Virus record (IMG/VR): IMGVR_UViG_3300042914_002215
Length of the DNA stretch: 64,000 nucleotides
Source of the DNA: a virus
Reading direction: 5' to 3' (one strand)
Each line of letters opens with the position of its first letter. Position 1 is the stretch's first letter. The position numbers and the translations under genes were made by a program. The notes below the pieces were generated by a model. The model did not search any database. It had not been told where the DNA came from and saw only the letters and a list, made by a program, of their open reading frames with translations. Of this stretch, positions 6,777 to 62,765 are shown piece after piece.

Positions 6777-6983
6777 ATGGATATCAAAGATATTATCAAC
6801 AATATTGCTGCTGGTGATAACATTGCAGCAAAAGAAGGTATAGAAAATGTTTTATCAGCCAAAGCGTTCGATGCGCTCCAAGGTCGCAAGCAAGAAATCG
6901 CTACAACTCTTTTTGGCGGGAAAGAGCAAGAGTCAGAAGAAGTTACAGGCGATGAAGAAAGCGAAGAAGCAACAGAAGAATGA
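6777..6983 (+). CDS. gp67: Small acidic prohead core protein (gp67-like)
   Basis: Directly after portal; acidic C-terminus; CATAAATA late-promoter-like box at 6744-6751. Confidence 0.6.
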   Translation: MDIKDIINNIAAGDNIAAKEGIENVLSAKAFDALQGRKQEIATTLFGGKEQESEEVTGDEESEEATEE

Positions 6984-7639
6984 AATCATTACTTGAGTTC
7001 AAATCTATTGTAGAAGAAGAGAAGTCAGACTACTCTAAGTTTGACGCACTTGTTCGTGCAGGATTGGCAAACAAGGCACAGTTGAGTCGTATTCATAAAA
7101 TCTTAGATAAGATGGGTGAAGAACGTCCTGTGTTCAATAATGCTGACCGTGAAATCATGCGTAATCTATTCAATCGCATGGTAGATTTAGTTTCAAGTAA
7201 ACAGATGTTTACCAAAACAAAACAAGCAATACGTGAAGAAGTGGAACTGAATGAAGGTCCAATGGATACACCATTAGTTCCAGATCCACCGGTAATATTG
7301 GTAATCAAACGTAAAGCAGTAAGATTGTATCCAGATGGCACCCGTATTGCTCTGTATTGGAGTGATAAGATAAAAAGAGTTTTCAGTTTGCCATATGGTC
7401 CTGCTGTTCAGCCAGTGATTCAAGCAGAAGAATATGTGCAAGAATTGATGGAGTCTGAAGAGTTATTACTAAATGACGGTAATAAAATTACTCTATCTGA
7501 AGAATCAAAACAACAAATTATAAACACATACGAACAGTTAGACGAAGAAAGCAAAGATTACTTCTGGCAGCAACTAACTGAATCGGTATCAACATTTGGA
7601 AAACTGTATGAATTTTGTAGACTTAATTCTGCAAAATAA
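6980..7639 (+). CDS. Hypothetical head-internal/core protein
   Basis: In head morphogenesis cluster; MKSLLEFKSIVEE leader; internal IREE, ELNE, LTE sites. Confidence 0.5.
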   Translation: MKSLLEFKSIVEEEKSDYSKFDALVRAGLANKAQLSRIHKILDKMGEERPVFNNADREIMRNLFNRMVDLVSSKQMFTKTKQAIREEVELNEGPMDTPLVPDPPVILVIKRKAVRLYPDGTRIALYWSDKIKRVFSLPYGPAVQPVIQAEEYVQELMESEELLLNDGNKITLSEESKQQIINTYEQLDEESKDYFWQQLTESVSTFGKLYEFCRLNSAK

Positions 7640-8069
7640 ATTAGACGAAGCCAAAGAACTTATCTTTGCACGTTTAGACGAGATTGCTTCTGTTCGTATG
7701 GAAGAAGCGAAACCATATATTGTTGATGCGATGTATGAAGAGATTGAAGTTGACGAAGAAGTATTAGAAGAAGCAGCTAAGAAACGCAATCCAAACATTC
7801 AGAAGATGGGTCGTATTACAAAAATACGTCGCCGTATTCGTCGTAATAAAAAAGGTAGAATTATAGTTCAGCGCAATGTTAAGAAATCTGGACTTAAAGG
7901 TTATAGAATTTCTGGTAGCACAGTCAAACGTATACCAGCAACAGTAAGATTACGCAAAGCACGTTTATTAAAACGTTCTTGGAAAACAACTAGAAAAAGT
8001 AAACTAAGACGTACATTGATGAAGAGAAAAATGTCAATGCGCCGTCGTAAAGCTATGGGACTAAAATAA
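7608..8069 (+). CDS. gp68: Prohead core protein (gp68-like)
   Basis: Acidic N-half, very Arg/Lys-rich C-half (KRKMSMRRRKAMGL); synteny. Confidence 0.7.
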   Translation: MNFVDLILQNKLDEAKELIFARLDEIASVRMEEAKPYIVDAMYEEIEVDEEVLEEAAKKRNPNIQKMGRITKIRRRIRRNKKGRIIVQRNVKKSGLKGYRISGSTVKRIPATVRLRKARLLKRSWKTTRKSKLRRTLMKRKMSMRRRKAMGLK

Positions 8070-8070: not shown

Positions 8071-8433
8071 ATGCCATTTGAAATTACCAATACTCTAAGA
8101 GGATCGTCAATTGTACGAGCAGTCGATCCTGGTACATATACAATCACTCTCAATAGTTTAAGAGCAAATACTACAACCGAGACTGTTACTGCTGCTGACA
8201 TCAAACATGTTTTGTGGTCAACAAACGGTAATATTCGTATCACAAGAAACGGTGTTCCTTTGTTAGCACTTCAAAATGGTGGTGACATGGATTTTGATTC
8301 GTATGGATATTCGGTTGCAAATAATAACACTCAAAGCATTGTAATTGAAATCAATACTGGCGGAACAATTATTTTACATCTTGCCAAGTATGCAACATAC
8401 AATGTTGATCCATATACAGGAGTAGCAATCTAA
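8071..8433 (+). CDS. Hypothetical virion protein
   Basis: 120-aa ORF between gp68 and gp21, tightly coupled. Confidence 0.55.
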   Translation: MPFEITNTLRGSSIVRAVDPGTYTITLNSLRANTTTETVTAADIKHVLWSTNGNIRITRNGVPLLALQNGGDMDFDSYGYSVANNNTQSIVIEINTGGTIILHLAKYATYNVDPYTGVAI

Positions 8434-9083
8434 TGAAACTCATCAAAGAACATATTGAGAATGTAAGATATCTTACCGAAAAAACGGAAGATGGTAAGAA
8501 ACAACTTTACATTGAAGGTACATTCCTTGTTGGTGATACAGTCAATCGCAACAACCGTATGTACAAAATGGACACACTTCGTAACGAAGTGCAACGATAC
8601 ACAGAAGAATACATCAATTCTAATCGTGCGCTTGGTGAACTAGGACATCCAGACACACCATCTCTAAATCTAGAACGTGTGTCACACAAGATTACAAGTT
8701 TGGTAGAGAACGGCAATACATTTGTCGGTAAAGCACTGATCATGGAAACACCATATGGTTTGATTGCTAAGAATCTTATTGAGTCTGGCGTTAATCTGGG
8801 TGTATCTTCACGTGCTTTAGGTTCTGTCGTTATGACTAAAGAAGGTTACAATCTGGTACAAGATGATTTGCGTCTTGCTACTGCTGCTGATATTGTTGCT
8901 GATCCTTCCGCTCCAGGTGCTTTTGTTCAAGGCATTATGGAAAACAAAGAATGGTTATTCGTAGAAGGTCGTTTTGTAGAATCTGATATCGACTATTCTA
9001 AGCAACAGATTCGTAAGGCATCACGCAGAGAGATTGAGGCTGTAGGATTACAGCTCTTCGAAAACTTCCTACGAAAACTTTAA
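8433..9083 (+). CDS. gp21: Prohead protease
   Basis: ALGELGHP, GVSSRALGS, DIVADPSAPGAFV. Confidence 0.96.
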   Translation: MKLIKEHIENVRYLTEKTEDGKKQLYIEGTFLVGDTVNRNNRMYKMDTLRNEVQRYTEEYINSNRALGELGHPDTPSLNLERVSHKITSLVENGNTFVGKALIMETPYGLIAKNLIESGVNLGVSSRALGSVVMTKEGYNLVQDDLRLATAADIVADPSAPGAFVQGIMENKEWLFVEGRFVESDIDYSKQQIRKASRREIEAVGLQLFENFLRKL

Positions 9084-9117: not shown

Positions 9118-10212
9118 ATGGCAACAACTAAACTAATGGAAGCCGCAGCAGATATTCTTGCAAAAAGCAAGTCATCCGCTGGTGGTATGCCAATGCCTAA
9201 ATTAACTCAGAACACACCTCCAGGCAATCCTGGAACACCTGAAGATTTAGGTGGTCCTACACCACAGAATTATAAGAACAACGATGATTCTGCTAAGTTG
9301 ACAAATAAAGCAACTGCTAAAAGTGCTTCTGCACCTACAACAAAGCCTTCGGCAGCATCAAGCGACGTTCAACTTGGAGACAAGAACATGAAAGCAGGCA
9401 CAGGTACAGCAATGATGCCTGAAGAGACAGAAGAAGGCGAACTGGTGCTTGACGATGAGTCAGCAATCGAAGAAATGAAAGCACAAATGAAAGAAGATGT
9501 TGCTTCATTGTTTGCCGATGACTCAAACATCTCTGAAGATTTCAAAGCAAAAGCAGCGACAATCTTTGAAGCACGTGTATTTGACCGTGTTGCTCAGATT
9601 CAAGAACAATTGGAAGCAGAATATGCTGGTCAATTAGAAGAAGCTGTTAATGCTATCCGTGATGAACTCACAGAAAAAGTAGATGATTACCTGAACTACG
9701 TAGTAGAGCAGTGGATGCAAGAAAACGAAATCGCAATTGAAAGCGGTCTACGTTCCGAAATCACTGAGGACTTTATTGCTGGTCTGCGTAATCTGTTTGC
9801 CGAAAACTATATCAACGTTCCAGAAGATAAAGTTGACCTAGTAGATGAACTAGCATCTAAGGTTGAAGAGCTGGAAGTTAAACTGAATGAAGAAATTGAA
9901 GCAAATGTTCAGTATAAAAAACAACTTACTGAAGCAATCAAAGCACAACTGGTAAATGAAGTATGCGAAGGTCTTACAGCAACTCAAGTAGAAAAAATTA
10001 AAGCACTTGCAGAGAGTGTAGAGTTCTCCACAGAGGAAGAATTCACAGAAAAACTTGAGACAATTCGTGAGAACTACTTCCCATCAGGCGTAAAGAAAGC
10101 CAATGCTTCACAGTTGCACGAAGAAGTGGAAGATGATGGCACTGAAAAGAAAGTTGCCGCTGATCCATACGTCGCTTCGGTTGCACAAGCAATTTCTAAA
10201 ATCAAAATCTAA
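9118..10212 (+). CDS. gp22: Prohead scaffold/core protein
   Basis: KAATIFEA, VDDYLNYVVEQWM; acidic coiled coil before MCP. Confidence 0.93.
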   Translation: MATTKLMEAAADILAKSKSSAGGMPMPKLTQNTPPGNPGTPEDLGGPTPQNYKNNDDSAKLTNKATAKSASAPTTKPSAASSDVQLGDKNMKAGTGTAMMPEETEEGELVLDDESAIEEMKAQMKEDVASLFADDSNISEDFKAKAATIFEARVFDRVAQIQEQLEAEYAGQLEEAVNAIRDELTEKVDDYLNYVVEQWMQENEIAIESGLRSEITEDFIAGLRNLFAENYINVPEDKVDLVDELASKVEELEVKLNEEIEANVQYKKQLTEAIKAQLVNEVCEGLTATQVEKIKALAESVEFSTEEEFTEKLETIRENYFPSGVKKANASQLHEEVEDDGTEKKVAADPYVASVAQAISKIKI

Positions 10213-46038: not shown

Positions 46039-46791
46039 ATGGCTGCACAACAGGGATTTCAGTATGAAAAAAATGCAGCAGCAGAGCTGAAAAAATTTGG
46101 TCTTGTTCCCAAAAGTTTCGTGCCAGCCGGTGCGGGTCATGATCAGCCCGACTTGTTACTAGAGTATAAGAAAAAAAAATCTGGTTGTGAGTTGAAGATT
46201 ACTGCCGCATCTGCTGGTTCTCTTGTCATGAAGTATGATATAAACGATAAGAAAAATCCATGGAAATTTGGTGATATCAAAGCAGATGATGATGAAAAAT
46301 TATTCATTCGTGATCTAGCATATGAAGTTGGACTTTTTGATATAATCAAAAAACAATGGAAAGATGTGCCATATAAAAGAGATAAAGATGCTAAGTGGGA
46401 AGCAACAGCAGGTAAACTAACACCACAGCAACGATATGAACGTGATAGAGATACCTTCAAAGATATTCGTGGAGAAATATCAGCAACGAAAATTGAAGAA
46501 TATTATAACAAAAAAGATACGTATTACGTGAATGTTGGTACTCACGGATTTTATTTGATGGGTATCAAAAATCCACTAAAACTCAAAGACGTGCCGATGT
46601 TTGGTAAGTCAGCAAAGGCAACATATCGTGCAAGAGTACAATACAAAGGCAGTGGCAATTATCAATTTACTTTTGAGATGCAGTTCTCAATACCAGCAAA
46701 TAAAAAATCACCATTCAATATAGCGCCAGTAAGTGGCAAGAATGTAAACATAATAAAAAAAGAAATCAATCTAAGCTGTTTCGACATATGA
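46039..46791 (+). CDS. Putative PD-(D/E)XK nuclease-fold protein
   Basis: GFQYE...PDLLL...GCELK. Confidence 0.5.
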   Translation: MAAQQGFQYEKNAAAELKKFGLVPKSFVPAGAGHDQPDLLLEYKKKKSGCELKITAASAGSLVMKYDINDKKNPWKFGDIKADDDEKLFIRDLAYEVGLFDIIKKQWKDVPYKRDKDAKWEATAGKLTPQQRYERDRDTFKDIRGEISATKIEEYYNKKDTYYVNVGTHGFYLMGIKNPLKLKDVPMFGKSAKATYRARVQYKGSGNYQFTFEMQFSIPANKKSPFNIAPVSGKNVNIIKKEINLSCFDI

Positions 46792-48011
46792 AATTCATGG
46801 ACTATCTAAAAGAGAGTAAAGAGGGCAAGAATGTTCATTTAGAACATCTTGAGGATAATGTATTAAACAATGGAGTTACAGGTGCACGTGAAGCAATAGA
46901 TTTTCTGCGTTCTTTACGTAACATGCTTGCAGGTCACACAGGCACAAAAATGAATGTGACTACAAAATGGGATGGTGCACCGGCAATCTTTGCTGGCACA
47001 AATCCAGAGAATGGTAAGTTTTTTGTTGGTACTAAATCAGTGTTTGCAAAAAATGCAAAATTGAATTATACTGATGAAGATATTGATGAAAATCATCCGA
47101 GTGAAGGACTCAATCAAAAACTAAAACTTGCATTAGCATTCTTACCTAAGTTAGGTATCAAAGGTGTTCTGCAAGGTGATATGATGTTCTCTAAAGGAGA
47201 TATCAAGCATGAGACAATCGATGGAGAAGATTATATCATCTTTCAACCAAATACAATCGTATATGCAGTCCCAACAAAATCAAAGTTGGCACAAGCAATG
47301 CTTGCTGCACAAATTGGCGTGGTATTCCATACATCATACTCTGGTAAAACACTTGAGACAATGAAAGCGTCATTTAACATTGATATTGGTCACTTGAAAA
47401 CTACCAAAGATGTTTGGTTTCGTGATGCATCATTCACTGACGCATCTGGTTCAGCTACATTCACCGAAGAAGAAACGGCCGAAATCACATCAATTCTTTC
47501 ACAAGCAGGTCGTGTATTTCAAACAATACCTGCACTGACATTGAATCGTGTTGCTGCATCTGATGTGTTTCTGACACAAATTAAAACGTTCAATAATACC
47601 AAAGTTCGTGAAGGTAAAAAGATTGCAGACACCAGAATTCATACACAAGAACTGATAAACTGGGTTGAAGCAAAACTAAACAAAGAAGTATTAGCCGCAA
47701 AGAAAGAAGATACAAAACAGAAACGTATCAAAGAGAAAAATGAAGTCATGCGTTTTTATCGTTCAAATGCAATCTATCTAAAACAAATATTTGATTTGAT
47801 GAATCTGATTGTTGATGCCAAGTTGATGATTATCCGTAAACTTGAAACAATTAGGAGCATCGGCACGTTTGTACGTACCGATGACGGTTTTCGTATTACG
47901 GCTCCCGAAGGGTTTGTTGCCGTTGATCACTTAGGCAAAGCATTGAAACTGGTAGATAGATTAGAATTCAGTCACAAAAACTTTACAGCACAGAAAGCGT
48001 GGGACAAATGA
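46788..48011 (+). CDS. Nucleic-acid-ligase-like protein with capsid-targeting-like leader
   Basis: MKFMDYLKE leader; TKWDG (KxDG motif I), LQGDMM, EGFVAV, LKLVD. Confidence 0.6.
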   Translation: MKFMDYLKESKEGKNVHLEHLEDNVLNNGVTGAREAIDFLRSLRNMLAGHTGTKMNVTTKWDGAPAIFAGTNPENGKFFVGTKSVFAKNAKLNYTDEDIDENHPSEGLNQKLKLALAFLPKLGIKGVLQGDMMFSKGDIKHETIDGEDYIIFQPNTIVYAVPTKSKLAQAMLAAQIGVVFHTSYSGKTLETMKASFNIDIGHLKTTKDVWFRDASFTDASGSATFTEEETAEITSILSQAGRVFQTIPALTLNRVAASDVFLTQIKTFNNTKVREGKKIADTRIHTQELINWVEAKLNKEVLAAKKEDTKQKRIKEKNEVMRFYRSNAIYLKQIFDLMNLIVDAKLMIIRKLETIRSIGTFVRTDDGFRITAPEGFVAVDHLGKALKLVDRLEFSHKNFTAQKAWDK

Positions 48012-48280: not shown

Positions 48281-48600
48281 TGTTCAACATCACATCAACT
48301 GCTGCAAAGAAAATCAAATCAATAATTGATGAAGAAAACCCAGATTTGAAACTACGTGTGTTCGTACAGGGTGGTGGTTGCACAGGTTTTCAGTATGGCT
48401 TTACACTTGAAGAACAATCAGAAGCCGATGATCATGTGTTTGAACGTGATGGCATACAGGTTGTCATAGATAGTATTAGTATGCATTATGTGAATGATGC
48501 GGAAATTGATTATGAAGAATCATTGATGGGTTCACAATTCAAAATCAAAAATCCTAATGTAACTGCAACTTGCGGTTGTGGTTCATCATTTGCCGTATGA
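48280..48600 (+). CDS. erpA: Fe-S cluster insertion protein (ErpA/IscA family)
   Basis: [20 protein letters not shown]...CGCGSSF. Confidence 0.93.
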
Positions 48601-48770
48601 AAACATTCAAAGAATATCTAACAGAGAAACAAGAGTTTGTATCAAAGGCTGGTGCTGGTGAATGGGGTCGTCCAGAACTGAGAGATAAATATCTCACTGA
48701 CACGCCAGGTCAAAGTACAAAACAATACAAAAAGTTTACAGGAAACTGGGCAACGACAGACAGAAAATAA
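48597..48770 (+). CDS. Small putative internal head protein
   Basis: [10 protein letters not shown] leader resembles the T4 internal-protein capsid targeting sequence. Confidence 0.6.
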
Positions 48771-50295: not shown

Positions 50296-51005
50296 AAATA
50301 GCACTGTGTATCTCCGGTCAACCACGTATGTGGGAAAAAGGTTTTGAGTATCACAATACAAACATCATCAAAGGTAATGATGTAACTGTATTTCTACATT
50401 CGTGGGAAATGCCAGCAGAACAAATGCAGCAGATTTCAGAAAAGTATCAAGCAAAGAGTTTCATCACATCACCAAATCCTACGATTGATTTATCAAAATA
50501 CACCAACACACCACCACCATCACCAAACTGGAAAGTCAAAGATGGTCGTATGTCAACGTGGGCACAAATGTATGCAATTTATGAATGTATGCGTACAAAA
50601 CGTGAGTATGAAGAATATCATAATATGAAGTTTGATTGGGTCGTTCGTTCACGATTTGACTTTGCAATCAACATTCGTATACCGTTTGATACGCTGAATC
50701 CAAATAAACTGTACATACCAAACTGTCGTATGTCACTCAATCGTGACTTTGGTAATGATCAGTTTGCATTCTCATCATCAGAAAACATGGACAAGTATTC
50801 GTATGCTTATCAGCACTACGATGAGTTTTATAAACAAGGTGTGCAGTTCATGATGGAAGATTTCATGAGTGCAAACTGGAAAAAGTATGGTCTTGTTGGT
50901 GATAATCTTGTGTACTGTGATGTCAATCACCCATTCTCACCAGGTGAATATAATGGCACATGGCACTCACTTTTACGAAATGACATGGAAGAATGGCTGA
51001 AATAA
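50292..51005 (+). CDS. Putative glycosyltransferase-like protein
   Basis: KIALCISGQPR, FDWVVRSRFD, NDQFA. Confidence 0.55.
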   Translation: MKIALCISGQPRMWEKGFEYHNTNIIKGNDVTVFLHSWEMPAEQMQQISEKYQAKSFITSPNPTIDLSKYTNTPPPSPNWKVKDGRMSTWAQMYAIYECMRTKREYEEYHNMKFDWVVRSRFDFAINIRIPFDTLNPNKLYIPNCRMSLNRDFGNDQFAFSSSENMDKYSYAYQHYDEFYKQGVQFMMEDFMSANWKKYGLVGDNLVYCDVNHPFSPGEYNGTWHSLLRNDMEEWLK

Positions 51006-53815: not shown

Positions 53816-54480
53816 TGCGTAAAGTTGCTGTTGTCACTGGTTGCAGTTATGGTCTTGGCTTTGAAATAGCAGATAGACTTATTGACGAAGGCTATTTTGT
53901 CTGCGGTCTATCACGTTCACAACCCCCAATGAAATTGTTTTCTGCTCCTGATACATTTCAATGGATAGAATGTGATGTATCAAATGCAGAAGAAGTGAAG
54001 TTGGCATTTGAAAAGATGGGCGTGTTCATTGATGTGCTAGTCAATAATGCTGGTGTGTTTGAGTATGGTGAGTTTTCTTCTCAGTCAATTAAAACGATTG
54101 ATAAAATTATTGATATCAATGTCAAGGGCACGATGTATGTGACTAAAGCAGCACAGAAATATTTGTCACGTGGTTCAAATGTTTTCTTTATCAACTCTGT
54201 TGCTGGTTTGTACGAGATAAAGAATGAAGCAATCTATGCAGCATCAAAACATGCTCTCACAGCATTTGCTGGTATTCTTGGTGAAGAACTTCGTAATGAT
54301 GGAATTAGAGTGACTAGCATTCATCCTGGCGGTATTGATACGCCAATGCAAAGAACAAATCCAATCAAAAAAGAATTACTTCAACCGACAGAGATATCAA
54401 ATCTAATCGTAAATGTAATCAATTCTAAAGCAACATATAAAACAATCAAACTATTTCCTGAATCAGAATGGCATCAATAA
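53812..54480 (+). CDS. SDR-family oxidoreductase
   Basis: TGCSYGLG, NNAG, YAASK, PGGIDT. Confidence 0.9.
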   Translation: MMRKVAVVTGCSYGLGFEIADRLIDEGYFVCGLSRSQPPMKLFSAPDTFQWIECDVSNAEEVKLAFEKMGVFIDVLVNNAGVFEYGEFSSQSIKTIDKIIDINVKGTMYVTKAAQKYLSRGSNVFFINSVAGLYEIKNEAIYAASKHALTAFAGILGEELRNDGIRVTSIHPGGIDTPMQRTNPIKKELLQPTEISNLIVNVINSKATYKTIKLFPESEWHQ

Positions 54481-55178
54481 TTCCAACTCAGCAGTTGTTC
54501 ATCGTAACATCTGCACTCAATCCAAGAATGGGTGTTATTAGTCGTGAAGATAGACTTCAACAAACAATTGATGGTCTAAAGTCATTACGTGAAAAATGTC
54601 CAGATGCAATTGTCATACTTGCGGAAGGCTCACCAGATAAAGTTGAAGAAGAGAAAATAAAAGAACTGGCAGATTATGTTGATATGGTAGCAGATTTCTC
54701 TGGTAATAGAGATATTTCACAGTTTGCATCAGTAGGCAAAAAGAGTGAAGCAGAGAATGTGCTCATGCTCAAAATGATGATGTTGTTGAAACAAGAGCCA
54801 AGTTTAATGAAACTTCGTCATTCAGTAAGTCGCATTTACAAACTATCGGGACGAACAATAATCAATGATGGTTTTGATATCAATGATCATAATCGGTTTG
54901 GTAAATATGTGTTCAAGAAACGTATGCCAACATGGCTACAAGGTGAACGTGCCGAGATTTTTACAGATTTGTTGATTACCAGATTATTCTCATTCTGCCC
55001 AAGTCTGATTGATGATTACATGATAGTATGTCAAAGAAACATAGGCGTGGTCAACGATGCTGGTATTGACACCGAACACGCTCACTTTTTCAATATAAAT
55101 CCAAATTACCTCATAGAACTTGACGATATTCACTGCCAGGGCATCATGGCAGGCACAGGAGCCACGGAAATCTACTAA
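54468..55178 (+). CDS. Hypothetical glycosyltransferase-like protein
   Basis: FIVTSAL, RLQQT, RIYKLSGR; within glycan island. Confidence 0.45.
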   Translation: MASIIPTQQLFIVTSALNPRMGVISREDRLQQTIDGLKSLREKCPDAIVILAEGSPDKVEEEKIKELADYVDMVADFSGNRDISQFASVGKKSEAENVLMLKMMMLLKQEPSLMKLRHSVSRIYKLSGRTIINDGFDINDHNRFGKYVFKKRMPTWLQGERAEIFTDLLITRLFSFCPSLIDDYMIVCQRNIGVVNDAGIDTEHAHFFNINPNYLIELDDIHCQGIMAGTGATEIY

Positions 55179-55220: not shown

Positions 55221-57911
55221 ATGAAATTTAGAGATTTTCTACGTGAACAGAAGGAAAAACATGCCGTCCTGGCTTTTGGACGCATGAATCCAATCACAAA
55301 TGGTCACGAAAAATTAGTCAATAAAGTCAAAGAAATTGCCGATAAAGTCGGTGGTTCACATCACATCGTCCTGTCACATTCGCAGGACGCAAAGAAAAAT
55401 CCCCTTACAGCAGATCAAAAAGTCAAACATGCCAGCAGAGCATTTCCTGGCACAAACTTCAAAGCAGCGTCTAAAGACAAACCAACTTTCTTTGATCATG
55501 CAGAAGAACTGCACAAGAAAGGTGTAACACATCTGCACATGGTAGGTGGTTCTGATCGTACAGAAGAATATCACAGACTGCTGCACAAATATAATGGCAC
55601 ACATGAAGGTGCTCGTTTCAACTTCAAAAAAATTACAGTACACTCTGCTGGCGAACGTGATCCAGATGCAGAAGGTGTAACTGGTATCTCAGCATCAAAG
55701 ATGCGTGAACATGCAAAGAATGGCGATTTGAATTCATTCAAGCAAGGTGCACCATCATCAATGTCACATGCACATGTCAAACAAATGTACAACGATGTCC
55801 GTAAGGGCATGAGATTGCACGAAGAAATCATTCGTGAAGGTGTACATGACAAAGGTATTTTCAAAGCAGTATTCTTAGGCGGTGGTCCTGGCTCAGGTAA
55901 AGATTACGTTCTATCAAATACATTAGATGGTCACGGTCTTGTTGAGATCAATTCAGACAAAGCACTTGAATATTTGATGGACAAAGAAAATCTGGACAAG
56001 AAGATGCCAGATAGTGAAGAGAAACAACGTAATGAAGTTCGTAAACGTGCAAAGAATATTACAGAGTTGCGTCAACGTTTAGCCCTTCATGGTCGTAATG
56101 GTCTTATCATCAATGGTACTGGTGATGATCCTGAGAAATACATGAAGATCAAAGAGATGCTTGAGAAACTTGGCTACGACACACATATGGTTATGGTAAA
56201 CACCAAAGATGAAGTTTCTAAGGCAAGAAATATAGAACGTGGTCAACGTGGTGGTCGTACAGTGCCAGAGGATATTCGTAGAGAAAAATGGGAAGCAGTA
56301 CAACAAGCAAGACCACAGTTTGCAAAGATGTTTCGTGATAACTATGTTGAGTTTGATAACTCAGCAGATTTGCGTGAAGCACCACCAGAACTTGTTGATG
56401 CTAAGAAAAAAGAAATGGAAAATATCTACAAACGTATTCAAAAGTTTGTAGGTCAACCGCCAAAAGCAGATCAAGCAAAAGGTTGGATTGCAACAGAATT
56501 AGGTAAGAAAGATACAGCACCGATTCGTCGTGATACAAAGCCACACGATGCTGCTGGCACACATGATCAAATGAATACGATGGGTCTAGAGTATTATGGT
56601 TTTGGTCGTTACGGCAAAGATGGCAAAGTAACTCATCGTTCAGTACATGGTTCACTTGTGCCAGTAGAGAAGATTGCAAAAACTGTAGAGACACATCAAA
56701 AGAAAATGCAAAAGATGAATGAGGCAGTCACAGTCTCAATCACTGGCGATACAGTAGAAGAAGTAACACGCACAATCAAGTTTTTGAAAACAGATGATGA
56801 AGTAGAAATGGCAGAGGAAGAAGAAGTAAATACAATGTCCGATCCTGGTGCATACAATTTACTCACACTCGGTCATGGCATGATCAAAGAAGATTTACGT
56901 CAATGGTTTGATCCAAAACATCCAAAGGGTGGATGGAAACGTATCAACAGTAAAGGTGAAGCGATTGGTCCTTGTGCCCGTGAGCCAGGTGAAGCAAAAC
57001 CAAAATGCATGTCAAATGAAAAACGTGCATCACTATCCAAGAAAGAACGTGCTTCAGCAGTCGCAGCAAAACGCCGTCACGATCCAAATCCAGAACGTCA
57101 AGGTAAACCGATCAATGTATCAAGTTTTGGTAAAGGTAAAATAAGTGAAGCGGCATATGAGGGCAATATTGGCATGATGGAAGTCATGAAGTTTCATCAG
57201 AAGGCAACTGACGAGCAGAAAAAACAATTCAAGAAACACATGGCAGATAAGAATCATAAAGAAGCATGGAAGTTAGTTCAACACGTATCGGGTACAAAAC
57301 TTGTTGGTAAACAATTTGAAGAAACAGAAAAGAAACAAAAACTAATGACTGACAATAAAGGTAAACCAAGAGTGTTTCACTTTAGAATGTCAGCAGCAAA
57401 AGAAGCGCACCGTAATGGTGGCACTGTAGCAAAAGTTGGAAACAAATATGTTGTCAAACTAAAAGAGGACTTAGATGAAGTTTATACACCAAGTGATTCT
57501 ACAATTGAAATCCATTATGGACAGAATAGTTCCACCCCTTCCGCAAAAGAATTGGGAAAGGTTAGAACCAACACTGGAAGAAAAGAAAGACCCAGTGCAG
57601 ACAAACCCGTTGCCGAAGCAAGAAGAACCATCACCCTCAACACAATCAAAGAAAACTTCCAGAAGAAAGTCCAAGAGTCAATTGACAAAGGAATAGAACC
57701 TGGTATTTCTATGGCTGGTGCTGGTGAGTCTCCTGCACGTGACATGGGTGAGAAGTTGAGCAAGAAAGGTAAAGCAACACAAGTTGTGCCTAAGAGAATT
57801 GATGAGTTGACTGGCGATACAACAACAGCAAGCATCGGTGATCAAAAAGAAGATGAGTTGAAGAAAAAAGGTATCTCACTAACTACATTCAAAAAGAGAA
57901 ACTACGTATGA
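55221..57911 (+). CDS. Multidomain putative head-packaged polyprotein: HIGH-type nucleotidyltransferase, P-loop kinase, small modules
   Basis: MKFRDFLRE leader; FGRMNPITNGH and ISASKMR; GGPGSGK; modules bounded by IRE, MNE, IKE, ISE, LKE, VQE, IDE. Confidence 0.7.
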   Translation: MKFRDFLREQKEKHAVLAFGRMNPITNGHEKLVNKVKEIADKVGGSHHIVLSHSQDAKKNPLTADQKVKHASRAFPGTNFKAASKDKPTFFDHAEELHKKGVTHLHMVGGSDRTEEYHRLLHKYNGTHEGARFNFKKITVHSAGERDPDAEGVTGISASKMREHAKNGDLNSFKQGAPSSMSHAHVKQMYNDVRKGMRLHEEIIREGVHDKGIFKAVFLGGGPGSGKDYVLSNTLDGHGLVEINSDKALEYLMDKENLDKKMPDSEEKQRNEVRKRAKNITELRQRLALHGRNGLIINGTGDDPEKYMKIKEMLEKLGYDTHMVMVNTKDEVSKARNIERGQRGGRTVPEDIRREKWEAVQQARPQFAKMFRDNYVEFDNSADLREAPPELVDAKKKEMENIYKRIQKFVGQPPKADQAKGWIATELGKKDTAPIRRDTKPHDAAGTHDQMNTMGLEYYGFGRYGKDGKVTHRSVHGSLVPVEKIAKTVETHQKKMQKMNEAVTVSITGDTVEEVTRTIKFLKTDDEVEMAEEEEVNTMSDPGAYNLLTLGHGMIKEDLRQWFDPKHPKGGWKRINSKGEAIGPCAREPGEAKPKCMSNEKRASLSKKERASAVAAKRRHDPNPERQGKPINVSSFGKGKISEAAYEGNIGMMEVMKFHQKATDEQKKQFKKHMADKNHKEAWKLVQHVSGTKLVGKQFEETEKKQKLMTDNKGKPRVFHFRMSAAKEAHRNGGTVAKVGNKYVVKLKEDLDEVYTPSDSTIEIHYGQNSSTPSAKELGKVRTNTGRKERPSADKPVAEARRTITLNTIKENFQKKVQESIDKGIEPGISMAGAGESPARDMGEKLSKKGKATQVVPKRIDELTGDTTTASIGDQKEDELKKKGISLTTFKKRNYV

Positions 57912-58492
57912 AAAAGTTTAGCGCATTCTTAGATGAAGCTGGTCGTTGCTGGCCGGGATATAAACCAGTACCGGGTAAAAAGCCATATACATTAGGCTCA
58001 TGTAGAAAAGAAGAAGTTGAACAAGAAACTGAAACATTAGAAGAAAAGGGTCCTGGTCTGTGGGCAAACATTCGTGCAAAGAGAGCACGTGGTGAACGTA
58101 TGAGAAAGCCTGGTGAAAAAGGTGCACCAACAGATGCACACATCAAAATGGCAAGAGAAGAATACGAAGCAGATGATGGTCCACTCACAGAAGAACAACT
58201 AGAACAATTGAGACAAGAATCGGAAGCATGGCAGCGTAAGGAAGGCCAATCTGAGTCTGGTGGTCTGAATCGTAAAGGTATTGAATCATATCGTCGTGCT
58301 AATCCAGGTTCAAAGTTATCAATGGCTGTAACAACAAAACCAAGCAAATTGAAACCTGGTTCTAAAGCAGCAAATCGTCGTAAGTCATTCTGTGCAAGAA
58401 TGGGCGGAATGAAGAAAAGATTGACATCTGCAAAGACAGCACGTGATCCAGATTCACGTATCAACAAAGCATTGAGAAAGTGGAACTGCTAA
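57908..58492 (+). CDS. Basic modular putative internal head protein
   Basis: MKKFSAFLDE leader; modules CWPGY...SC, GLWANIRAKR, RRKSFCARM...KWNC separated by acidic linkers. Confidence 0.65.
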   Translation: MKKFSAFLDEAGRCWPGYKPVPGKKPYTLGSCRKEEVEQETETLEEKGPGLWANIRAKRARGERMRKPGEKGAPTDAHIKMAREEYEADDGPLTEEQLEQLRQESEAWQRKEGQSESGGLNRKGIESYRRANPGSKLSMAVTTKPSKLKPGSKAANRRKSFCARMGGMKKRLTSAKTARDPDSRINKALRKWNC

Positions 58493-59803
58493 GTGGCACA
58501 GTTTAGAACGGACTTACATAAGATAGATTCGGGACAAGTATTCACTCGTTATGAAGTGAATATGATGTCTGATCGTCTTTCACCATCTGGCACATTGACA
58601 GATGCGTTTGGCCGTTTGCGTATATCACAACCACTTACTCTATTTGATAGCACACACCGTTTTGCTGACAATGGATTGTGGGTAACATCAAACACAGCAG
58701 GAAATAGTTCATATGCTTTTGTGAATAATCAAAGCATGATTACGATGACTGTAGAAACAACTGCAAATGCAGAAGTCATTCGTGAAACAACAAAAGTATT
58801 TTCATATCAGCCAGGCAAATCTTTGTTGATGATGTCAACATTTGCTATGGAAACACCAAAAGCAAATCTCCGTCAAAGAGTTGGATACTATGGTGCTGAG
58901 AATGGTATTTACTTTGAAAATGACGGCACAACAAACTACTTTGTATTGAAAAGTAATACAACAGGAACAATCACAGAGACAAAAGTTGCACAATCAAATT
59001 GGAATGTAGACAAGTTTGATGGCACAGGTTACTCAGCACAGAGTGGTGGTGCAGAACATACTGGTGGACTTGATGTGAGTAAAACAAACATTCTTTGGAT
59101 GGATATTGAGTGGTTAGGTGTTGGTGATGTTCGTTGTGGTTTTGTAGTTGATGGAAAAATGCTTCCAGCACACATATTCCACAATGACAATAAAAACATT
59201 GTTCCTTACATGACAACTGCAACATTACCGTTGCGATATGAAATCAAGAATACTGGAGTTACCGCAAGTAACTCAACAATGAAGCAAATCTGCTCAACAG
59301 TAATTTCAGAGGGTGGATACGAATTATATGGCTCACAACAGGCAATTCAAACACCTGTCACTGCTCCAATAGATTTGCCTGTCCCAGGAACATATTATAA
59401 TTTGATTTCTTTGAGATTGAAATCGGGTAGATTAGACGCAGTTGCTATTCTTACTGCAATTTCATTGCTGGGTGTGACAAACAATGCATACTATAACTGG
59501 CAAGTTAGAGCGAGCGGTACTACAACAGGTGGAACATGGGTAAGTGCAGGAGATAATTCTGCGATAGAATATAAAATAGATGCTGCAACGATTACTGGTG
59601 GAAGAATATTAGCATCAGGATTTACAACAGCCACAACACAAAGTGCTGTGCCTGTAGATATTCTCAAAGAAGCATTGTTCAAGTTTCAATTAGAAAGAAA
59701 TGGTTTAACCGGCACACCGTATGAACTGACACTGTGTGCCGCATCTCAAACTGCTGGTGCTGATATCTACGCATCAATGGATTGGGAAGAGATTACAAGA
59801 TAA
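58493..59803 (+). CDS. Putative virion structural protein
   Basis: GTG start; Thr/Gly/Ser-rich beta-type composition; DAFGRLR motif. Confidence 0.6.
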   Translation: MAQFRTDLHKIDSGQVFTRYEVNMMSDRLSPSGTLTDAFGRLRISQPLTLFDSTHRFADNGLWVTSNTAGNSSYAFVNNQSMITMTVETTANAEVIRETTKVFSYQPGKSLLMMSTFAMETPKANLRQRVGYYGAENGIYFENDGTTNYFVLKSNTTGTITETKVAQSNWNVDKFDGTGYSAQSGGAEHTGGLDVSKTNILWMDIEWLGVGDVRCGFVVDGKMLPAHIFHNDNKNIVPYMTTATLPLRYEIKNTGVTASNSTMKQICSTVISEGGYELYGSQQAIQTPVTAPIDLPVPGTYYNLISLRLKSGRLDAVAILTAISLLGVTNNAYYNWQVRASGTTTGGTWVSAGDNSAIEYKIDAATITGGRILASGFTTATTQSAVPVDILKEALFKFQLERNGLTGTPYELTLCAASQTAGADIYASMDWEEITR

Positions 59804-59826
59804 TAAAACTAAATCAGGAGAACAAC

Positions 59827-60870
59827 ATGTCAATTTTCAATGACAAAGCACTGAAAGGTGTAGCAGAAGCAGCAGCAAAAATCATGGCAGAAACAAGCCA
59901 TGGTCTAAAGGGTAATCAGCATAAAATTGATGCCAACAAAAATGGTAAAATTGATGCTCATGACTTCAAACTTCTACGTGCAGGTAAAAAGCCAGCGATG
60001 AAGAAAGAAGAAGTTGAACAAATTGATGAACTGTCAAGAAGTAGTTTAGCATCATATACTAATAAAGCAGCACGTAATATGTCTACAATGACGGGAATAG
60101 CCGCAAAACAAACAACACCAGGAGGTAATCCTAAAAAAGGCACCGAAGAAAAGGCTAAAAAAATTGCTAATACCATTAGCAAAAGAATGCATGGTATCAA
60201 TAAGGCAACATCTCGTTTGGCTAAAGAAGAAGTTGAATTGAACGAAGAAACAGAACAACTTCAAGAGTATGAGTCAAAAGGTGGTACATATCAGCACAAA
60301 GGTAATTACGGCACTTCATACAAGACAGATGAAGAAGGTAATGAAATCAAGCCAGCAAAACAAAAAGGCTACGGTGCTCGTCAAAACTATGTTCGTGGCA
60401 CAAGCACAGGCGAAAAGAAAAAGATGAAAGAAGAACTATCATTCACAGAAATGCTTGAACTGTACAACGAGCATGGTCTAAAAGTTCTTGCACCAATTGA
60501 AAAAGAAGAACAACAAATTGGTGATCAAACAGTTGAAGTTATTGATGCCGACAAAGTAAATGGTGTTGTTGCAACTATCGTTGAAGAGCCAACAGAAGAA
60601 GAGTTCAACAAAGAATTGAAAGATCAACAAGATAGTTTTGCTGGTAAAAAGAAACAACCAAAAGTTGCTGCTGGTAAAACAACTGGTGTAAAAGTTATGC
60701 CAGAAGAAGTTGAACTTGATGAGCGCACATTGACATCTGGTGAAGCCAAAAAGAAAGAAGAGTATGTCAAAGGCATGAAGAAAGGTCTTTCTGGTTTCAA
60801 ACAGCGTTATGGTGAACGTGCTAAATCAGTAATGTACGCAACAGCAACTAAGATGGCAAAGAAAGACTAA
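59827..60870 (+). CDS. Modular putative internal head protein with EF-hand-like motif
   Basis: IDANKNGKIDAHDF; modules separated by QIDE, ELNE, LQE, ELDE. Confidence 0.6.
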   Translation: MSIFNDKALKGVAEAAAKIMAETSHGLKGNQHKIDANKNGKIDAHDFKLLRAGKKPAMKKEEVEQIDELSRSSLASYTNKAARNMSTMTGIAAKQTTPGGNPKKGTEEKAKKIANTISKRMHGINKATSRLAKEEVELNEETEQLQEYESKGGTYQHKGNYGTSYKTDEEGNEIKPAKQKGYGARQNYVRGTSTGEKKKMKEELSFTEMLELYNEHGLKVLAPIEKEEQQIGDQTVEVIDADKVNGVVATIVEEPTEEEFNKELKDQQDSFAGKKKQPKVAAGKTTGVKVMPEEVELDERTLTSGEAKKKEEYVKGMKKGLSGFKQRYGERAKSVMYATATKMAKKD

Positions 60871-60871
60871 T

Positions 60872-62155
60872 ATGAAAGTCAAACCTCTAAAAATCAAAAT
60901 AAAGCAGCAGCCGCCAACTGCTGCTGAGAGGTTATATCAGAGACATCAGGCAATTCGTAAAGAAAAAGGATTGCCTGATCCATCCGAATATAAAAAGAAG
61001 TTGGAAGGTATGAAAGAAGATACCGAACAACTTGATGAGATGCCAGAATCAAGTATGAAAACACGTGATGTACATTCACACTTGAAGAAAGCAGGTTGGG
61101 CAATAGCAAGAACTGGTGGTGGTCATGACATTTATAGTCATCCACAAGCAAAGCGTATTATTGCCGTGCCAAGACATAAACAATTGAAAGCACCTCTCAT
61201 CAAAGGTATTCTCAAAGCATCAAAGGTATCTGAAGAAACAGAGATTGAAGAACAATTAGAGAAGAAGGGGCGATTCGTGTCTGGACCACCAAAGAAAACA
61301 TTCAAAGCACCTACGATTGTATCGCCAATGAAAGAAGCAAAAGACACACGTGAATATGATTATGAAGGTGATATGGCAATGTCACAACTTCGTTCATTGG
61401 TATTCAATGCAGAAGATTTGATGGAAATGATGGATGAGAATACAAATCTTCCTGAGTGGGTACAATCAAAGATTACACTTGCTGAAGATTATATCTCTAC
61501 AGCAGCAAACTATCTGCGTGGTGAATTGACAGAAGAAGTGAATCTAAATGAAGGTCGTCCATCTCAGCGTCATCCATTAGAAGATCATGATTATCACAAG
61601 AAGTCTAATGATGCATTGGTTCATATCGCAAAAGATGCTCATCAAGCAGCAGAAGCAATGAAGGGTCACAATACACAAGCAGAAAACAAGTATCGTGATC
61701 AAGCAAATGATTCTGCAACTGTAAGACATTGGAGAAGTAAGAATGGTATGCCTGATTGGTACAGAAAGAAATACGGGCATGTAATTGATGGTAAAGTAAT
61801 GCTCCCTGTACACACAGGTAGTATGAAAAAAGAAGAGATTGAGTATCTTGAAGAAAAGAATGCTCCAACTAATCCTGAACTGTGGTCAAGAGCAAAAGCA
61901 CTTGCACGTTCCAAATTTGATGTGTATCCATCAGCATACGCTAATGGCTGGGCAGCAAAGTGGTACAAGTCCAAAGGCGGTGGTTGGAAAACTGTCAGTG
62001 AAGAAGCAGAAGAGCCAAGCATGGCAGCAAGAACTCTGTCACGTAAAGCACAGATCGTAAAAGATGCTGCGAAAAGCAAGAAAAACGAAGCAGAAGAGGC
62101 ATCGGACAAGTTTCAAAAAGACCCCGAATTGTCCAGCGATATACAGAAAACATAA
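60872..62155 (+). CDS. Modular protein containing a HicA-like RNase domain
   Basis: LKKAGW...GGHDIYSHP....IAVPRH...LIKGILK bounded by QLDE and VSEE; further modules after LNE and LEE. Confidence 0.7.
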   Translation: MKVKPLKIKIKQQPPTAAERLYQRHQAIRKEKGLPDPSEYKKKLEGMKEDTEQLDEMPESSMKTRDVHSHLKKAGWAIARTGGGHDIYSHPQAKRIIAVPRHKQLKAPLIKGILKASKVSEETEIEEQLEKKGRFVSGPPKKTFKAPTIVSPMKEAKDTREYDYEGDMAMSQLRSLVFNAEDLMEMMDENTNLPEWVQSKITLAEDYISTAANYLRGELTEEVNLNEGRPSQRHPLEDHDYHKKSNDALVHIAKDAHQAAEAMKGHNTQAENKYRDQANDSATVRHWRSKNGMPDWYRKKYGHVIDGKVMLPVHTGSMKKEEIEYLEEKNAPTNPELWSRAKALARSKFDVYPSAYANGWAAKWYKSKGGGWKTVSEEAEEPSMAARTLSRKAQIVKDAAKSKKNEAEEASDKFQKDPELSSDIQKT

Positions 62156-62186: not shown

Positions 62187-62765
62187 ATGTCACTTTGGGG
62201 AAACGTAGATGCATCTAACAATGCTCCAAACTTTTCAGGTCTAACTGGCTACGATACATCAACTACAGGTGAAAGTCTGGCTAACTCTCAGCCTTCATCA
62301 GTATTTGGTAATACATATATCAGCGCCACAAGAACAGGTGTGGAGTTTGGTGTATTTGGTATTGATGCCACAGAAGAAGGACTTATCACTGACGGACAGC
62401 CAACACACGCTGGTTGGGTAGCACGTACAAAGGGTGCTGGTCCAGTTGTATCAGTCACAGCAAACACTGATGCTGTAGGTCCTGCTGCAACAGCATGTAC
62501 ATATACACTTGTTATTTCAAACGGTGGTATAAACAATACTGCTGCTCAAGTTAGCGTAACTACTGCTGCTACTGGTAGAATCTCTAGCATTTCAATTCTG
62601 AACGGTGGTTTGTATACTGCTACACCAACAGCAAATACATTCGGTAACACTGCATTCACCTTCACAATGGGTGGACGCAATGGTCGCACCACATTTGAAA
62701 CTCTGGTAGCAATGGGTTCAATGACTGGTGATGCTTCCGACGACGCTATTGCGCCTGATTCCTAA
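62187..62765 (+). CDS. Putative virion structural protein
   Basis: MSLWG start, HAGWV, ETLVAM; Thr/Gly/Ala-rich. Confidence 0.6.
   Translation: MSLWGNVDASNNAPNFSGLTGYDTSTTGESLANSQPSSVFGNTYISATRTGVEFGVFGIDATEEGLITDGQPTHAGWVARTKGAGPVVSVTANTDAVGPAATACTYTLVISNGGINNTAAQVSVTTAATGRISSISILNGGLYTATPTANTFGNTAFTFTMGGRNGRTTFETLVAMGSMTGDASDDAIAPDS

Follow-up and report, generated by a model that had tools for sequence, protein, structure and literature searches.

The prohead protease of bacteriophage T4, gp21, cuts after the glutamate of L/I-x-E (PMC9026906). T4 internal proteins IPII and IPIII begin with MKTYQEFIAE followed by A, and IPI begins with MKTFKEF. Targeting depends on positions 4 and 7 of these leaders, and processing on positions 8 and 10 (Mullaney & Black 1996, reviewed in PMC9026906 and PMC3012670). 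The phiKZ-like giant phages (201phi2-1, phiKZ and SPN3US) have a diverged gp21 homologue that also cuts many head proteins after Glu in a three-residue motif, some of them at several points; the resulting fragments remain in the head and are then ejected (PMC9026906, PMC5694885). Polyvalent proteins of phages and conjugative elements (Iyer et al. 2017, PMC5512222), whose listed domains include a zeta-toxin-like kinase, are predicted to accompany the DNA into the host and to function there early.

Homologues of the proteins described here are already known from virions. Published proteomics of cyanophage S-SM1 (Sullivan et al. 2010, PMC3037559) report the cyanophage core gene clusters T4-GC190 ('cytitidyltransferase', 25 peptide counts) and T4-GC119 ('structural protein', 13 counts), and the products of genes flanking GC190 are also found in the virion; peptide counts are silent on whole versus processed protein. 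T4-GC190 of S-SM1 begins with MKKFSAFLNE and is a direct homologue of the nucleotidyltransferase module discussed below. T4-GC119 is a polyprotein directly homologous to the DLRxWF, PTNP, CWPGYK and DUF6321 modules. In that study both are only unexplained virion proteins: leader, junction motif and cassette build are undescribed, and GC119 gene sizes of 276 to 2985 nt are left uncommented. No paper describing such cargo polyproteins was found in the literature.

The locus compared here occupies positions 55221-62155 of a 64,000-nt viral DNA (IMG/VR record IMGVR_UViG_3300042914_002215) from a T4-like marine phage; this whole stretch is called the window. Five ORFs are closely packed: A and B overlap in ATGA, B abuts C, and D and E lie one base apart.

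55221..57911, + strand: ORF A, putative cargo polyprotein of 896 aa, with modules assigned by PHROG and Pfam
57908..58492, + strand: ORF B, 194 aa, with leader MKKFSAFLDE, a CWPGYK mini-module, a GLWANI module and a C-terminal DUF6321 module
58493..59803, + strand: ORF C, virion structural protein by homology, amid the operon (phrog_1645, 5e-136)
59827..60870, + strand: ORF D, 347 aa, with an N-terminal module that is kept among relatives and has an EF-hand-like loop, then cassettes
60872..62155, + strand: ORF E, 427 aa, multi-module chain

A reading made from the sequence alone had proposed that the ORFs starting at 55221, 57908, 59827 and 60872 (A, B, D and E) are strings of small modules, and this is what they are. 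Separate stretches match separate PHROG and Pfam families, including nucleotidyltransferase, P-loop kinase, HicA and DUF6321, together with several small basic modules. ORF A consists of a leader, the nucleotidyltransferase, the P-loop kinase, an ill-defined middle, the DLRxWF basic module and C-terminal modules. ORF B ends in a PF19846 match (1.3e-16) to DUF6321. ORF E carries a conserved N-terminal module, HicA, a YDYEGD helical module, a second helical module (residues 235-303), the PTNP module and a C-terminal tail. The sites listed earlier are all present: IIRE/G, MIKE/D and KISE/A in A; QIDE/L, ELNE and ELDE/R in D, where the cassette linkers KEEVEQIDE, KEEVELNE and PEEVELDE each end at a site; and QLDE/M, NLNE/G and YLEE/K in E. 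ORF C, which had been set apart from this architecture, is by homology an ordinary virion structural protein and not a polyprotein. Its PHROG match is phrog_1645 ('virion structural protein'), it shares 60% identity with a virion structural protein of cyanophage S-RIM8, and it has no [ILVM]xE enrichment against shuffles (z -0.1). The description of the chains as late fared less well, in that TATAAATA was looked for upstream of 55221 and is absent, only TACTAAATACTAAATAA being there, and ORF A has no clear T4-type late promoter.

The individual modules and joints on which the comparison with relatives depends are as follows.

55248..55814, + strand: nucleotidyltransferase module with HIGH motif (PF01467, phrog_3041/395)
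55815..55838, + strand: nucleotidyltransferase-kinase joint LHE/EIIRE/G, with two candidate cleavage sites
55839..56498, + strand: P-loop kinase module, Zeta-toxin/AAA_33-like (PF06414 5e-14, PF13671)
56892..57149, + strand: DLRxWF basic two-Cys module, flanked by GMIKE and KISE
61040..61234, + strand: predicted HicA-like RNase module (PF07927, 1.7e-10), flanked by EQLDE/M and KVSE/E
61526..61552, + strand: cassette insertion point ELTE/EVNLNE/G of ORF E, empty in the present phage
61859..62002, + strand: PTNPxLW...YPSAYANGWA module, flanked by EYLEE/K and TVSE/E

The nucleotidyltransferase belongs to the cyanophage 'cytidylyltransferase', T4-GC190 family, and its joint to the kinase keeps [IL]xE followed by G in all homologues. 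The kinase, which has sequence and fold matches in the PDB to NMP kinases and polynucleotide kinases, is a stand-alone gene in pelagiphage HTVC008M, where gp129 begins MIPFILKE and continues GLYDPGIF. The DLRxWF module also occurs behind leaders and as a 91-aa stand-alone ORF, and hydrophobic-x-E ends exactly at its start in 19 of 21 non-redundant homologues with upstream sequence. Both sites flanking HicA are kept in all ORF E orthologues (121/121), and a site lies one residue upstream of the PTNP module in 23/23 non-redundant instances with upstream sequence.

In AF2 models of ORFs A and E, the joints fall in predicted low-confidence linkers that separate confident domains. Residues 1-430 of ORF A form two domains with a mean pLDDT of 81.5, and the sole long stretch below 50 within the model (200-208) is the nucleotidyltransferase-kinase joint. 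The leader has low pLDDT with a short helix at 3-8. In ORF E, HicA (57-119) is the best-predicted part, the PTNP module reaches pLDDT 75-78, and the low-confidence linkers carrying joints are 39-56, 120-176, 208-234, 304-329 and 374-395.

The junction motif was surveyed in 80 related viral contigs and in cultured cyanophages, counting a hit when [ILVMF]xE lies within -4..+2 residues of a non-redundant module start. T4-like loci have a site at 98 of 106 module starts, against a rate of 17.4% for positions drawn at random from these proteins; the contigs were retrieved via one module (DUF6321) and are not phylogenetically independent, so the statistical strength is overstated. The distance from site to module start is fixed for each module family across homologues, and P3 is Leu or Ile at 74/94 junctions although the search admitted seven residues there, in keeping with the L/I-x-E rule of T4 gp21. 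By sequence comparison, the positional signal at joints is strong. Raw [ILVM]xE frequency is weak evidence, because z scores against shuffles are modest (A 2.8, E 2.7, D 1.2, B 0.2; 1.6-1.8x enrichment in A and E, none in B), the motif is in 1.26x background excess over the window as a whole, and a z of 3.5 is seen in one non-virion ORF. The density of sites in acidic context is 5.1x higher across the four ORFs than over the remainder of the window. A number of [ILVM]xE sites fall within folded modules, where they are probably left uncut.

Relatives gain, lose and reorder modules exactly at x-E sites, as had been predicted. At ELTE/EVNLNE/G, the main insertion hot spot (mean 44 inserted residues), the number of different cassettes ranges among ORF E orthologues from zero to at least four, and nearly all of these cassettes end in hydrophobic-x-E, mostly EEVELxE. 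In the related locus L009, the nucleotidyltransferase-kinase joint has a 70-aa cassette inserted between its two sites. Eight module families are seen in 29 different orders. Because each cassette carries its own linker and site, it can be added, removed or moved in frame while its neighbours stay unaffected, and such exchange gives a combinatorial cargo repertoire. The modules also occur as stand-alone ORFs, another anticipated feature, in a different phage lineage where they are separate genes and have a site at 0/45 module starts.

Both leaders proposed earlier are found at the starts of ORFs A and B, and related leaders precede other genes outside the locus.

55221..55247, + strand: capsid-targeting-like leader MKFRDFLRE of ORF A, a 9-residue variant
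57908..57937, + strand: capsid-targeting-like leader MKKFSAFLDE of ORF B
46788..48011, + strand: ligase-like ORF with leader MKFMDYLKE
48597..48770, + strand: 57-aa ORF with a 10-residue leader, its first six residues identical to T4 IPI (MKTFKEF...)

The pattern MK.?[FYLW]..[FYLW][LIVMF].E occurs at about 38 non-redundant ORF starts versus 1 of 2005 opposite-strand ORFs, and only twice at internal positions across 192,342 residues. Unrelated cargo follows it (nucleotidyltransferase, ligase-like, HicA, DUF6321 and other modules), and leader codons differ while residue class is preserved, which places conservation at the peptide level. An MKFRDFLRE-type leader also precedes the nucleotidyltransferase in L008, L009, L015, L016, L024 and L038. 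In the ORF B leader F4, F7, L8 and E10 match MKTYQEFIAE of T4 IPII and IPIII. Together these comparisons strongly support the reading of the A and B leaders as capsid-targeting sequences like those of T4. A leader of this kind is absent from the N-termini of ORFs D and E.

The window also encodes the proposed processing enzyme and its expected substrates.

6980..8069, + strand: two ORFs at the gp67/gp68 prohead-core position, with linkers AIRE/EVELNE/G and YEEIEVDE/EVLEE
8433..9083, + strand: gp21-type prohead protease, proposed processing enzyme (phrog_207, 6e-72)
9118..10212, + strand: gp22 scaffold (phrog_237), the motif-richest protein of the window

The protease is 36% identical to T4 gp21 and conserves GELxHP and GVSSRxLGS. 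The expected gp21 substrates are the richest in the motif, with 22 sites versus 10.9 expected in gp22 (z 4.2) and z 2.9 and 2.2 for the two core-position ORFs; even EEVELNE is present. For gp23, an ILNE/T site had been placed at the maturation position. The site exists (L50-N51-E52/T53), and its position agrees approximately, about 8 alignment columns upstream of the column aligned to T4 L63-T64-E65/A66, in a gapped region.

Sequence and comparison establish that the chains are modular, that A and B carry the leader, that the joints bear the motif and exchange cassettes, and that the phage has the protease gene. ORFs A, B, D and E are probably head cargo polyproteins that would be packaged, cut by gp21 and partly ejected with the DNA. 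During prohead assembly, A and B would be drawn to the scaffolding core by their 9-10-residue capsid-targeting sequences, homologous to those of T4; recruitment of D and E would depend on conserved N-terminal modules of their own or on association. The gp21-type protease would cut after Glu in the (L/I/V/M)-x-E that ends each acidic linker, removing leaders and freeing the modules as separate products: the nucleotidyltransferase, the P-loop kinase, the HicA-type RNase and small, very basic peptides (DLRxWF, CWPGYK, GLWANI, PTNP and DUF6321). The DNA-filled head would retain these products, of which at least some would pass into the cell along with the DNA. Of the original proposal of a packaged effector-cassette system, exchange at joints, the leader match and homologues in S-SM1 virions bear out their parts, and cleavage, retention, ejection and the cargo's role in the cell are inferred.

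It is possible, though unlikely, that packaging and cutting take place as above but yield no effectors. In that case the basic peptides would be DNA counter-ions, spacers or disposable core parts like gp22, gp67 and gp68, the enzymes would work in the head or during assembly, and the next host would receive nothing functional. Most cassettes are indeed short, Lys/Arg-rich and devoid of an enzyme signature, the same linker motif appears in the prohead-core-position ORFs, one of them extremely basic in its C-terminal half, and most core-protein fragments of T4 exit the head (PMC9026906). However, a HicA RNase well above the Pfam threshold (41.3 bits versus a cutoff of 27), a nucleotidyltransferase-kinase pair and a ligase-like protein have no obvious capsid job. 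Quick cassette turnover among near-identical phages looks like arms-race variation, and in T4 both the internal proteins and Alt enter the host by injection and act on it (PMC3012670). Still less probable are uncleaved, ordinary multidomain proteins, virion-associated or not, in which acidic EEVELxE is a favoured flexible or helical linker promoting recombination and MKxFxxFLxE serves folding, expression or binding to another partner: cleavage is the inferred part of the polyprotein reading, the linker DNA repeat AAAGAAGAAGTTGAA (three occurrences) could spread the linker by recombination alone, and multidomain phage proteins without known processing exist (PMC5512222), but recombination would not hold Leu/Ile at P3 and Glu at P1 while other linker positions and codons vary, nor put a site right before modules behind a leader (MKTFFDLHE/DLR, MKSFKNFIAE/RCW), the motif is missing where modules are separate genes, and the leader matches experimentally defined T4 targeting residues.

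As probable head cargo polyproteins, the four ORFs resemble polyvalent proteins in being multidomain with highly variable domain order. The polyvalent hallmark domains (MuF, ARTs and DarB-type helicase/methylase) are absent here, and neither a uniform protease-site linker nor a T4-type leader is described for that group; its description leaves cyanophages and HicA unmentioned and treats T4-like phages only for Alt/ModA/ModB, called not genuine polyvalent proteins (PMC5512222). The phiKZ-like giants, for which no shared ten-residue leader is described, differ in using S/A/G-x-E instead of L/I-x-E and in having large substrates with propeptides rather than interchangeable small cassettes. The likeness to T4 extends to a ten-residue N-terminal leader (aromatic at 4 and 7, aliphatic at 8, Glu at 10, as in IPI, IPII, IPIII and Alt) that is common to unrelated cargo, to cargo of enzymes and basic proteins that varies between related phages, and to a gp21-family protease, whose specificity here is assigned by analogy with T4's. 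Unlike enteric T4, these phages have a marine and freshwater host range, and their cargo families are nucleotidyltransferase, P-loop kinase, HicA and DUF6321. In T4, each packaged protein has a single domain, its own gene and its own leader, and only its termini are removed by cleavage. Here, in contrast, a gene holds up to about six modules with a site at each internal joint, such that one leader or N-terminal module would bring in several products.

To judge from its recognisable genes, which by PHROG matches include terminase, sheath, tube and portal (5095-6765), the source of the window is a T4-like myophage. Genes for gp20, gp22 and gp23 adjoin that of a gp21-type protease in a T4-type head gene cluster, and the capsid protein shares 62-64% identity with its counterparts in Prochlorococcus and Synechococcus myophages. 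A megablast search of 50,697 phage records gave no nucleotide-level match for the region. The relevant features are:

8433-9083, gp21-type prohead protease (phrog_207, 6e-72)
9118-10212, gp22 scaffold
10236-11579, gp23 major capsid protein
55221-57911, plus strand, ORF A, proposed cargo polyprotein
57908-58492, plus strand, ORF B, proposed cargo polyprotein
58493-59803, plus strand, ORF C, virion structural protein
59827-60870, plus strand, ORF D, proposed cargo polyprotein
60872-62155, plus strand, ORF E, proposed cargo polyprotein

The five ORFs at 55221-62155 form one tight operon: A overlaps B in ATGA, C follows B without a gap, and a single base lies between D and E. The sequence-only reading had described A, B, D and E as chains of modules joined at hydrophobic-x-Glu (x-E) sites, where a prohead protease would cut (marked |). 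ORF calls and translation recovered all four ORFs, the x-E sites quoted for them and the capsid-targeting-like leaders on A and B. ORF C was rightly set apart from this architecture. It has no site enrichment, matches phrog_1645 (5e-136) and is 60% identical to a virion protein of cyanophage S-RIM8, matches that identify it as a plain virion structural protein. S-CAM9 gp098, considered as an ORF C homologue, was ruled out by comparison and looks ligase-like instead. Late expression of the polyprotein ORFs is an assumption: the T4 late promoter TATAAATA was not found upstream of ORF A, and the looser TAAATA pattern is no more frequent than expected by chance. The stretch directly upstream of ORF A (48786-55178) is occupied by overlapping genes for sugar modification: methyltransferase, nucleotidyltransferase, kinase-like, sugar-phosphate cyclase-like and SDR.

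Relatives were drawn from 80 IMG/VR loci fetched via ORF B and from cultured phages (L codes below), with all ORFs called. The pattern MK.?[FYLW]..[FYLW][LIVMF].E, which describes the leader, begins about 38 non-redundant forward ORFs versus 1 of 2005 opposite-strand ORFs, and occurs internally twice in 192,342 residues. Codons vary at the conserved leader positions (TTT/TTC; TTT/TAT/TAC/TTC; eight codons at position 8) while residue class is kept, which argues for selection on the leader peptide and not on the mRNA. At least eight types of cargo follow the leader, including the nucleotidyltransferase, a ligase-like protein, HicA, DUF6321 and the module families CWPGYK, DLRxWF and PTNP; HicA stands behind it in L021 (MKTFKAFISE|EVELLDE|MPG...).

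In the T4 leader, targeting depends on positions 4 and 7, and processing on positions 8 (aliphatic) and 10 (Glu). The T4 record has MKTYQEFIAE|A at the start of IPII and IPIII and MKTFKEF... at the start of IPI. ORF B (MKKFSAFLDE) agrees at all four positions (F4, F7, L8, E10), as does the leader of a 57-aa ORF at 48597. The leader of ORF A (MKFRDFLRE) is one residue shorter (F3, F6, L7, E9), a variant shared by the ligase-like ORF at 46788. The N-termini of D and E lack the leader. Their N-terminal modules are conserved among relatives and the remainder varies, so these modules may be another means of entering the head.

The ligase-like protein (KWDG motif; 46788-48011) carries the leader in the window phage, L019 and L022. 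Its S-SM1 homologue (T4-GC71, L090:1796-2770) is without a leader and was absent from the virion proteins detected, so phages may differ in whether they package this enzyme.

The expectation that x-E sites would be unusually frequent in the cargo ORFs held only in part. Compared with shuffled sequences, [ILVM]xE is modestly in excess in A (24 versus 14.7 expected, z 2.8) and E (14 versus 7.7, z 2.7), but D (z 1.2) and B (z 0.2) are low, the window proteome as a whole exceeds expectation 1.26-fold, and a z of 3.5 is reached by one non-virion ORF. Because raw frequency is too weak for the claim, it was replaced by positional tests. The window proteins with most of the motif, gp22 (z 4.2) and a pair of ORFs at the gp67/gp68 position (z 2.9 and 2.2), are all expected gp21 substrates. 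When only sites that follow three or more acidic residues are counted, their density in A, B, D and E (9 in 1879 aa) is 5.1 times that in the rest of the window (18 in 19,173 aa). The EEVELNE| linker of ORF D also occurs in one ORF of this pair, at 6980. In gp23, the proposed maturation site LNE|T is present, a few residues upstream of where T4 LTE65|A aligns. In the other ORF of the gp67/gp68 (prohead-core) pair, at 7596-8069, the N-terminal half is acidic and contains several sites (NKLDE|A, ARLDE|I, EIEVDE|EVLEE|), and the C-terminal half is extremely rich in Arg and Lys; from this composition it looks like a protamine-like internal DNA-binding protein freed by the protease.

Site position was examined with profile HMMs built from eight window-protein modules; a locus counted as T4-like if it had a homologue of the nucleotidyltransferase, the kinase or ORF C. 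In these loci, [ILVMF]xE lies within -4 to +2 residues of 98 of 106 non-redundant module starts, compared with 17.4% of random positions in the same proteins. The offset between site and module is fixed for each family: DLRxWF starts right after the Glu in 19 of 21 cases and PTNP one residue after it in 23 of 23. The site is kept whatever lies upstream of DLR (GMIKE|, AELKE|, EVFTE|, SPISE|, VQLSE|, EQVDE|). In the junction logo (n=94), P3 is Leu or Ile in 74 cases where seven residues were permitted, and P5-P8 are mostly Glu, in agreement with the L/I-x-E cleavage rule of T4 gp21 (PMC9026906). A different repeated linker (YEPEGEMVE| / YEPEGDQIDE|) occurs in S-CAM9 gp096 (L002:7879-10029), a large protein encoded after the cytidylyltransferase. 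It also ends in hydrophobic-x-E, and linker dialects seem to vary between cyanophage lineages.

A second phage lineage, marked by portal phrog_1216, a GroES-like gene and capsid phrog_371, carries the same modules as separate 47-115-aa genes between the portal and capsid genes. PTNP-like, DLRxWF-like and DUF6321 genes stand in a row there and have Gly-rich tails (L075:3356-4267, L078:574-1598, L070, L048). The starts of these modules read M(A)(N)GLRKW, MAKLC... or ...GGTP-AWQRK, and an x-E site is present in 0 of 45. The contrast in site presence between the T4-like phages and this lineage is clear; the nominal p-values of 3e-64 and 1e-30 overstate the case, since the contigs are related and the counts are not independent. 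The location between portal and capsid genes argues that the module families are head-associated beyond T4-like phages.

Modules had been predicted to be gained, lost or reordered at the Glu sites, and to occur also as stand-alone ORFs; the relatives bear out both predictions. A metagenome protein collection contains more than 5,500 relatives of ORF E, and the ORF E junction sites are 99-100% conserved among 121 orthologues. The main insertion hot spot in these orthologues is the joint ELTE|EVNLNE|G, which holds from zero to at least four different small cassettes (none in the window phage), nearly all ending in hydrophobic-x-E and mostly in EEVELxE|. In L009, a 70-residue cassette lies between the two sites of the nucleotidyltransferase-kinase joint, and the eight module families are found in 29 different orders. 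Separate genes encode the modules in the second lineage and the kinase in pelagiphage HTVC008M, where it still starts MIPFILKE|G. The linker DNA AAAGAAGAAGTTGAA(CAA) is identical at 58007-58024, 60004-60021 and 60223-60237 (ORFs B and D), and related copies lie at 60698 and 61527. The repeat may provide microhomology for cassette exchange, with codon bias as the alternative. Codon bias can largely account for the three copies, and their identity was not counted as evidence of a recombination signal.

The window gp21 homologue shares 36% identity with the T4 protein, and its GELxHP and GVSSRxLGS motifs are conserved. An AF2 model of ORF A residues 1-430 (mean pLDDT 81.5) has two confident domains, and its sole long low-confidence stretch, 200-208, is exactly the joint LHE|EIIRE|G; the leader is modeled as a short helix with low confidence. 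For ORF E the model is poor as a whole (mean pLDDT 54) and served only to place domain and linker boundaries. Its confident blocks are 57-119 (HicA), 235-303 and 330-373, and the junction sites fall in the low-confidence linkers between them.

Published virion data bear on homologues of these proteins. The leader of S-SM1 GC190 (MKKFSAFLNE|AERS) is nearly that of ORF B, and GC119 strings together DLRxWF-type, PTNP-type, CWKGYE and DUF6321 modules, with an x-E joint ahead of most of them. Sullivan et al. (2010, PMC3037559) reported 'a putative citidylyltransferase (T4-GC190)' in purified S-SM1 virions. Peptide counts in their Table S8 are 25 for T4-GC190, 13 for the 'structural protein' T4-GC119, and 12, 10 and 7 for the GC190 neighbours GC1453, GC1454 and GC1455, in mass spectrometry of whole virions that is not head-localised and in which whole and cut proteins are indistinguishable (PMC3037559). 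The T4-GC119 gene ranges from 276 to 2985 nt among cyanophages (PMC3037559).

ORF A encodes a HIGH-motif nucleotidyltransferase (PF01467; phrog_3041, 7e-64) followed by a Zeta-toxin/AAA_33-type P-loop kinase (PF06414, 5e-14), with additional stretches that match other PHROGs. NadR is a bifunctional NMN adenylyltransferase and ribosylnicotinamide kinase. In fold searches that gave low TM-scores, the nucleotidyltransferase-kinase layout at 55221-56510 matches two-domain NadR (E 4e-7), and ATP sulfurylase/APS kinase matches the pair equally well (E 4e-8); two-domain matches span E 4e-8 to 1e-5. Single-domain fold matches are to NaMN adenylyltransferase and to NMP and polynucleotide kinases. A PDB sequence search with the nucleotidyltransferase gave no match, and in NCBIfam it reached NMNAT and PPAT models only below threshold, NMNAT far below cutoffs. 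NAD salvage by the core 'cytidylyltransferase' of cyanophages is a lead suggested by the two-domain layout.

The C-terminal end of ORF B is DUF6321. Residues 65-117 of ORF E match HicA (PF07927, 41.3 bits versus a cutoff of 27), with the GGGH and VPRH motifs kept across 47 aligned orthologues. This HicA is embedded in a 427-aa chain and is not a stand-alone small toxin; Pfam searches of the neighbours D and 62187-62765 gave no match to the HicB antitoxin at E <= 0.01. The N-terminal module of ORF D (59827-60020), conserved in D-type proteins, has a canonical-looking EF-hand loop DANKNGKIDAHDF and weak Pfam EF-hand matches, which would place a calcium-binding module at the front of this cargo chain. 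Most remaining cassettes are short and very basic. An effector role is plausible for the enzyme modules. The basic peptides are at least as likely to serve as DNA counter-ions as to be effectors.

The polyprotein interpretation is supported for targeting, site placement and shuffling at the sites, and has indirect published support for virion presence through the S-SM1 homologues. Cleavage after Glu at the joints by the prohead protease is proposed from motif and position. A full scheme of plug-and-play cargo in abundant marine and freshwater T4-like phages is tentative, and we think it rather unlikely that all its steps hold jointly. Under such a scheme, an acidic (L/I)-x-E linker would let any small protein join a head-targeted chain in frame, and one linker would be both protease site and recombination joint. 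The prohead protease would free the cargo, which would be injected before gene expression. The HicA RNase would be harmless inside the precursor, and the nucleotidyltransferase-kinase would be NadR-like. The cargo would be a fast-evolving kit for pre-emptive anti-defence and host takeover.

Among known systems, polyvalent proteins share one trait with A, B, D and E, which carry several domain activities per polypeptide (2 to 15 in the polyvalent criterion) in an order that varies among relatives. The paper on polyvalent proteins makes no mention of cyanophages or HicA and treats T4-like phages only for Alt/ModA/ModB, which it judges not to be genuine polyvalent proteins (Iyer et al. 2017, PMC5512222). 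Pfam searches found none of the polyvalent hallmark domains (MuF, ART, DarB-type helicase/methylase, peptidases) in A, B, D or E; only the zeta-like kinase overlaps. In phiKZ-like giant phages, many head proteins are cut after S/A/G-x-E, but the substrates are not cassette chains. No published description of the present system was found in a limited literature search (DUF6321, 'cytitidyltransferase', and capsid targeting with cyanophage).

The T4 capsid-targeting sequence and its internal proteins are a textbook case of proteins delivered with DNA. To our knowledge, T4-type internal proteins are known essentially from enteric T-even phages, with one protein per gene. This is the closest system, sharing with the window phage the leader, the shared-leader logic, the protease family and the motif. 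The finding suggests that the same leader and protease logic also runs in the T4-like phages that dominate oceans and lakes, and that it has been extended there to multi-cassette polyproteins with cargo swapped at the protease sites. Such an extension would account for two cyanophage virion proteins that have long lacked an explanation: T4-GC190, the 'cytidylyltransferase', and T4-GC119 with its variable size. Several interchangeable cassettes per gene with a site at each joint, which the window phage has, are not described for the T4 internal-protein system.
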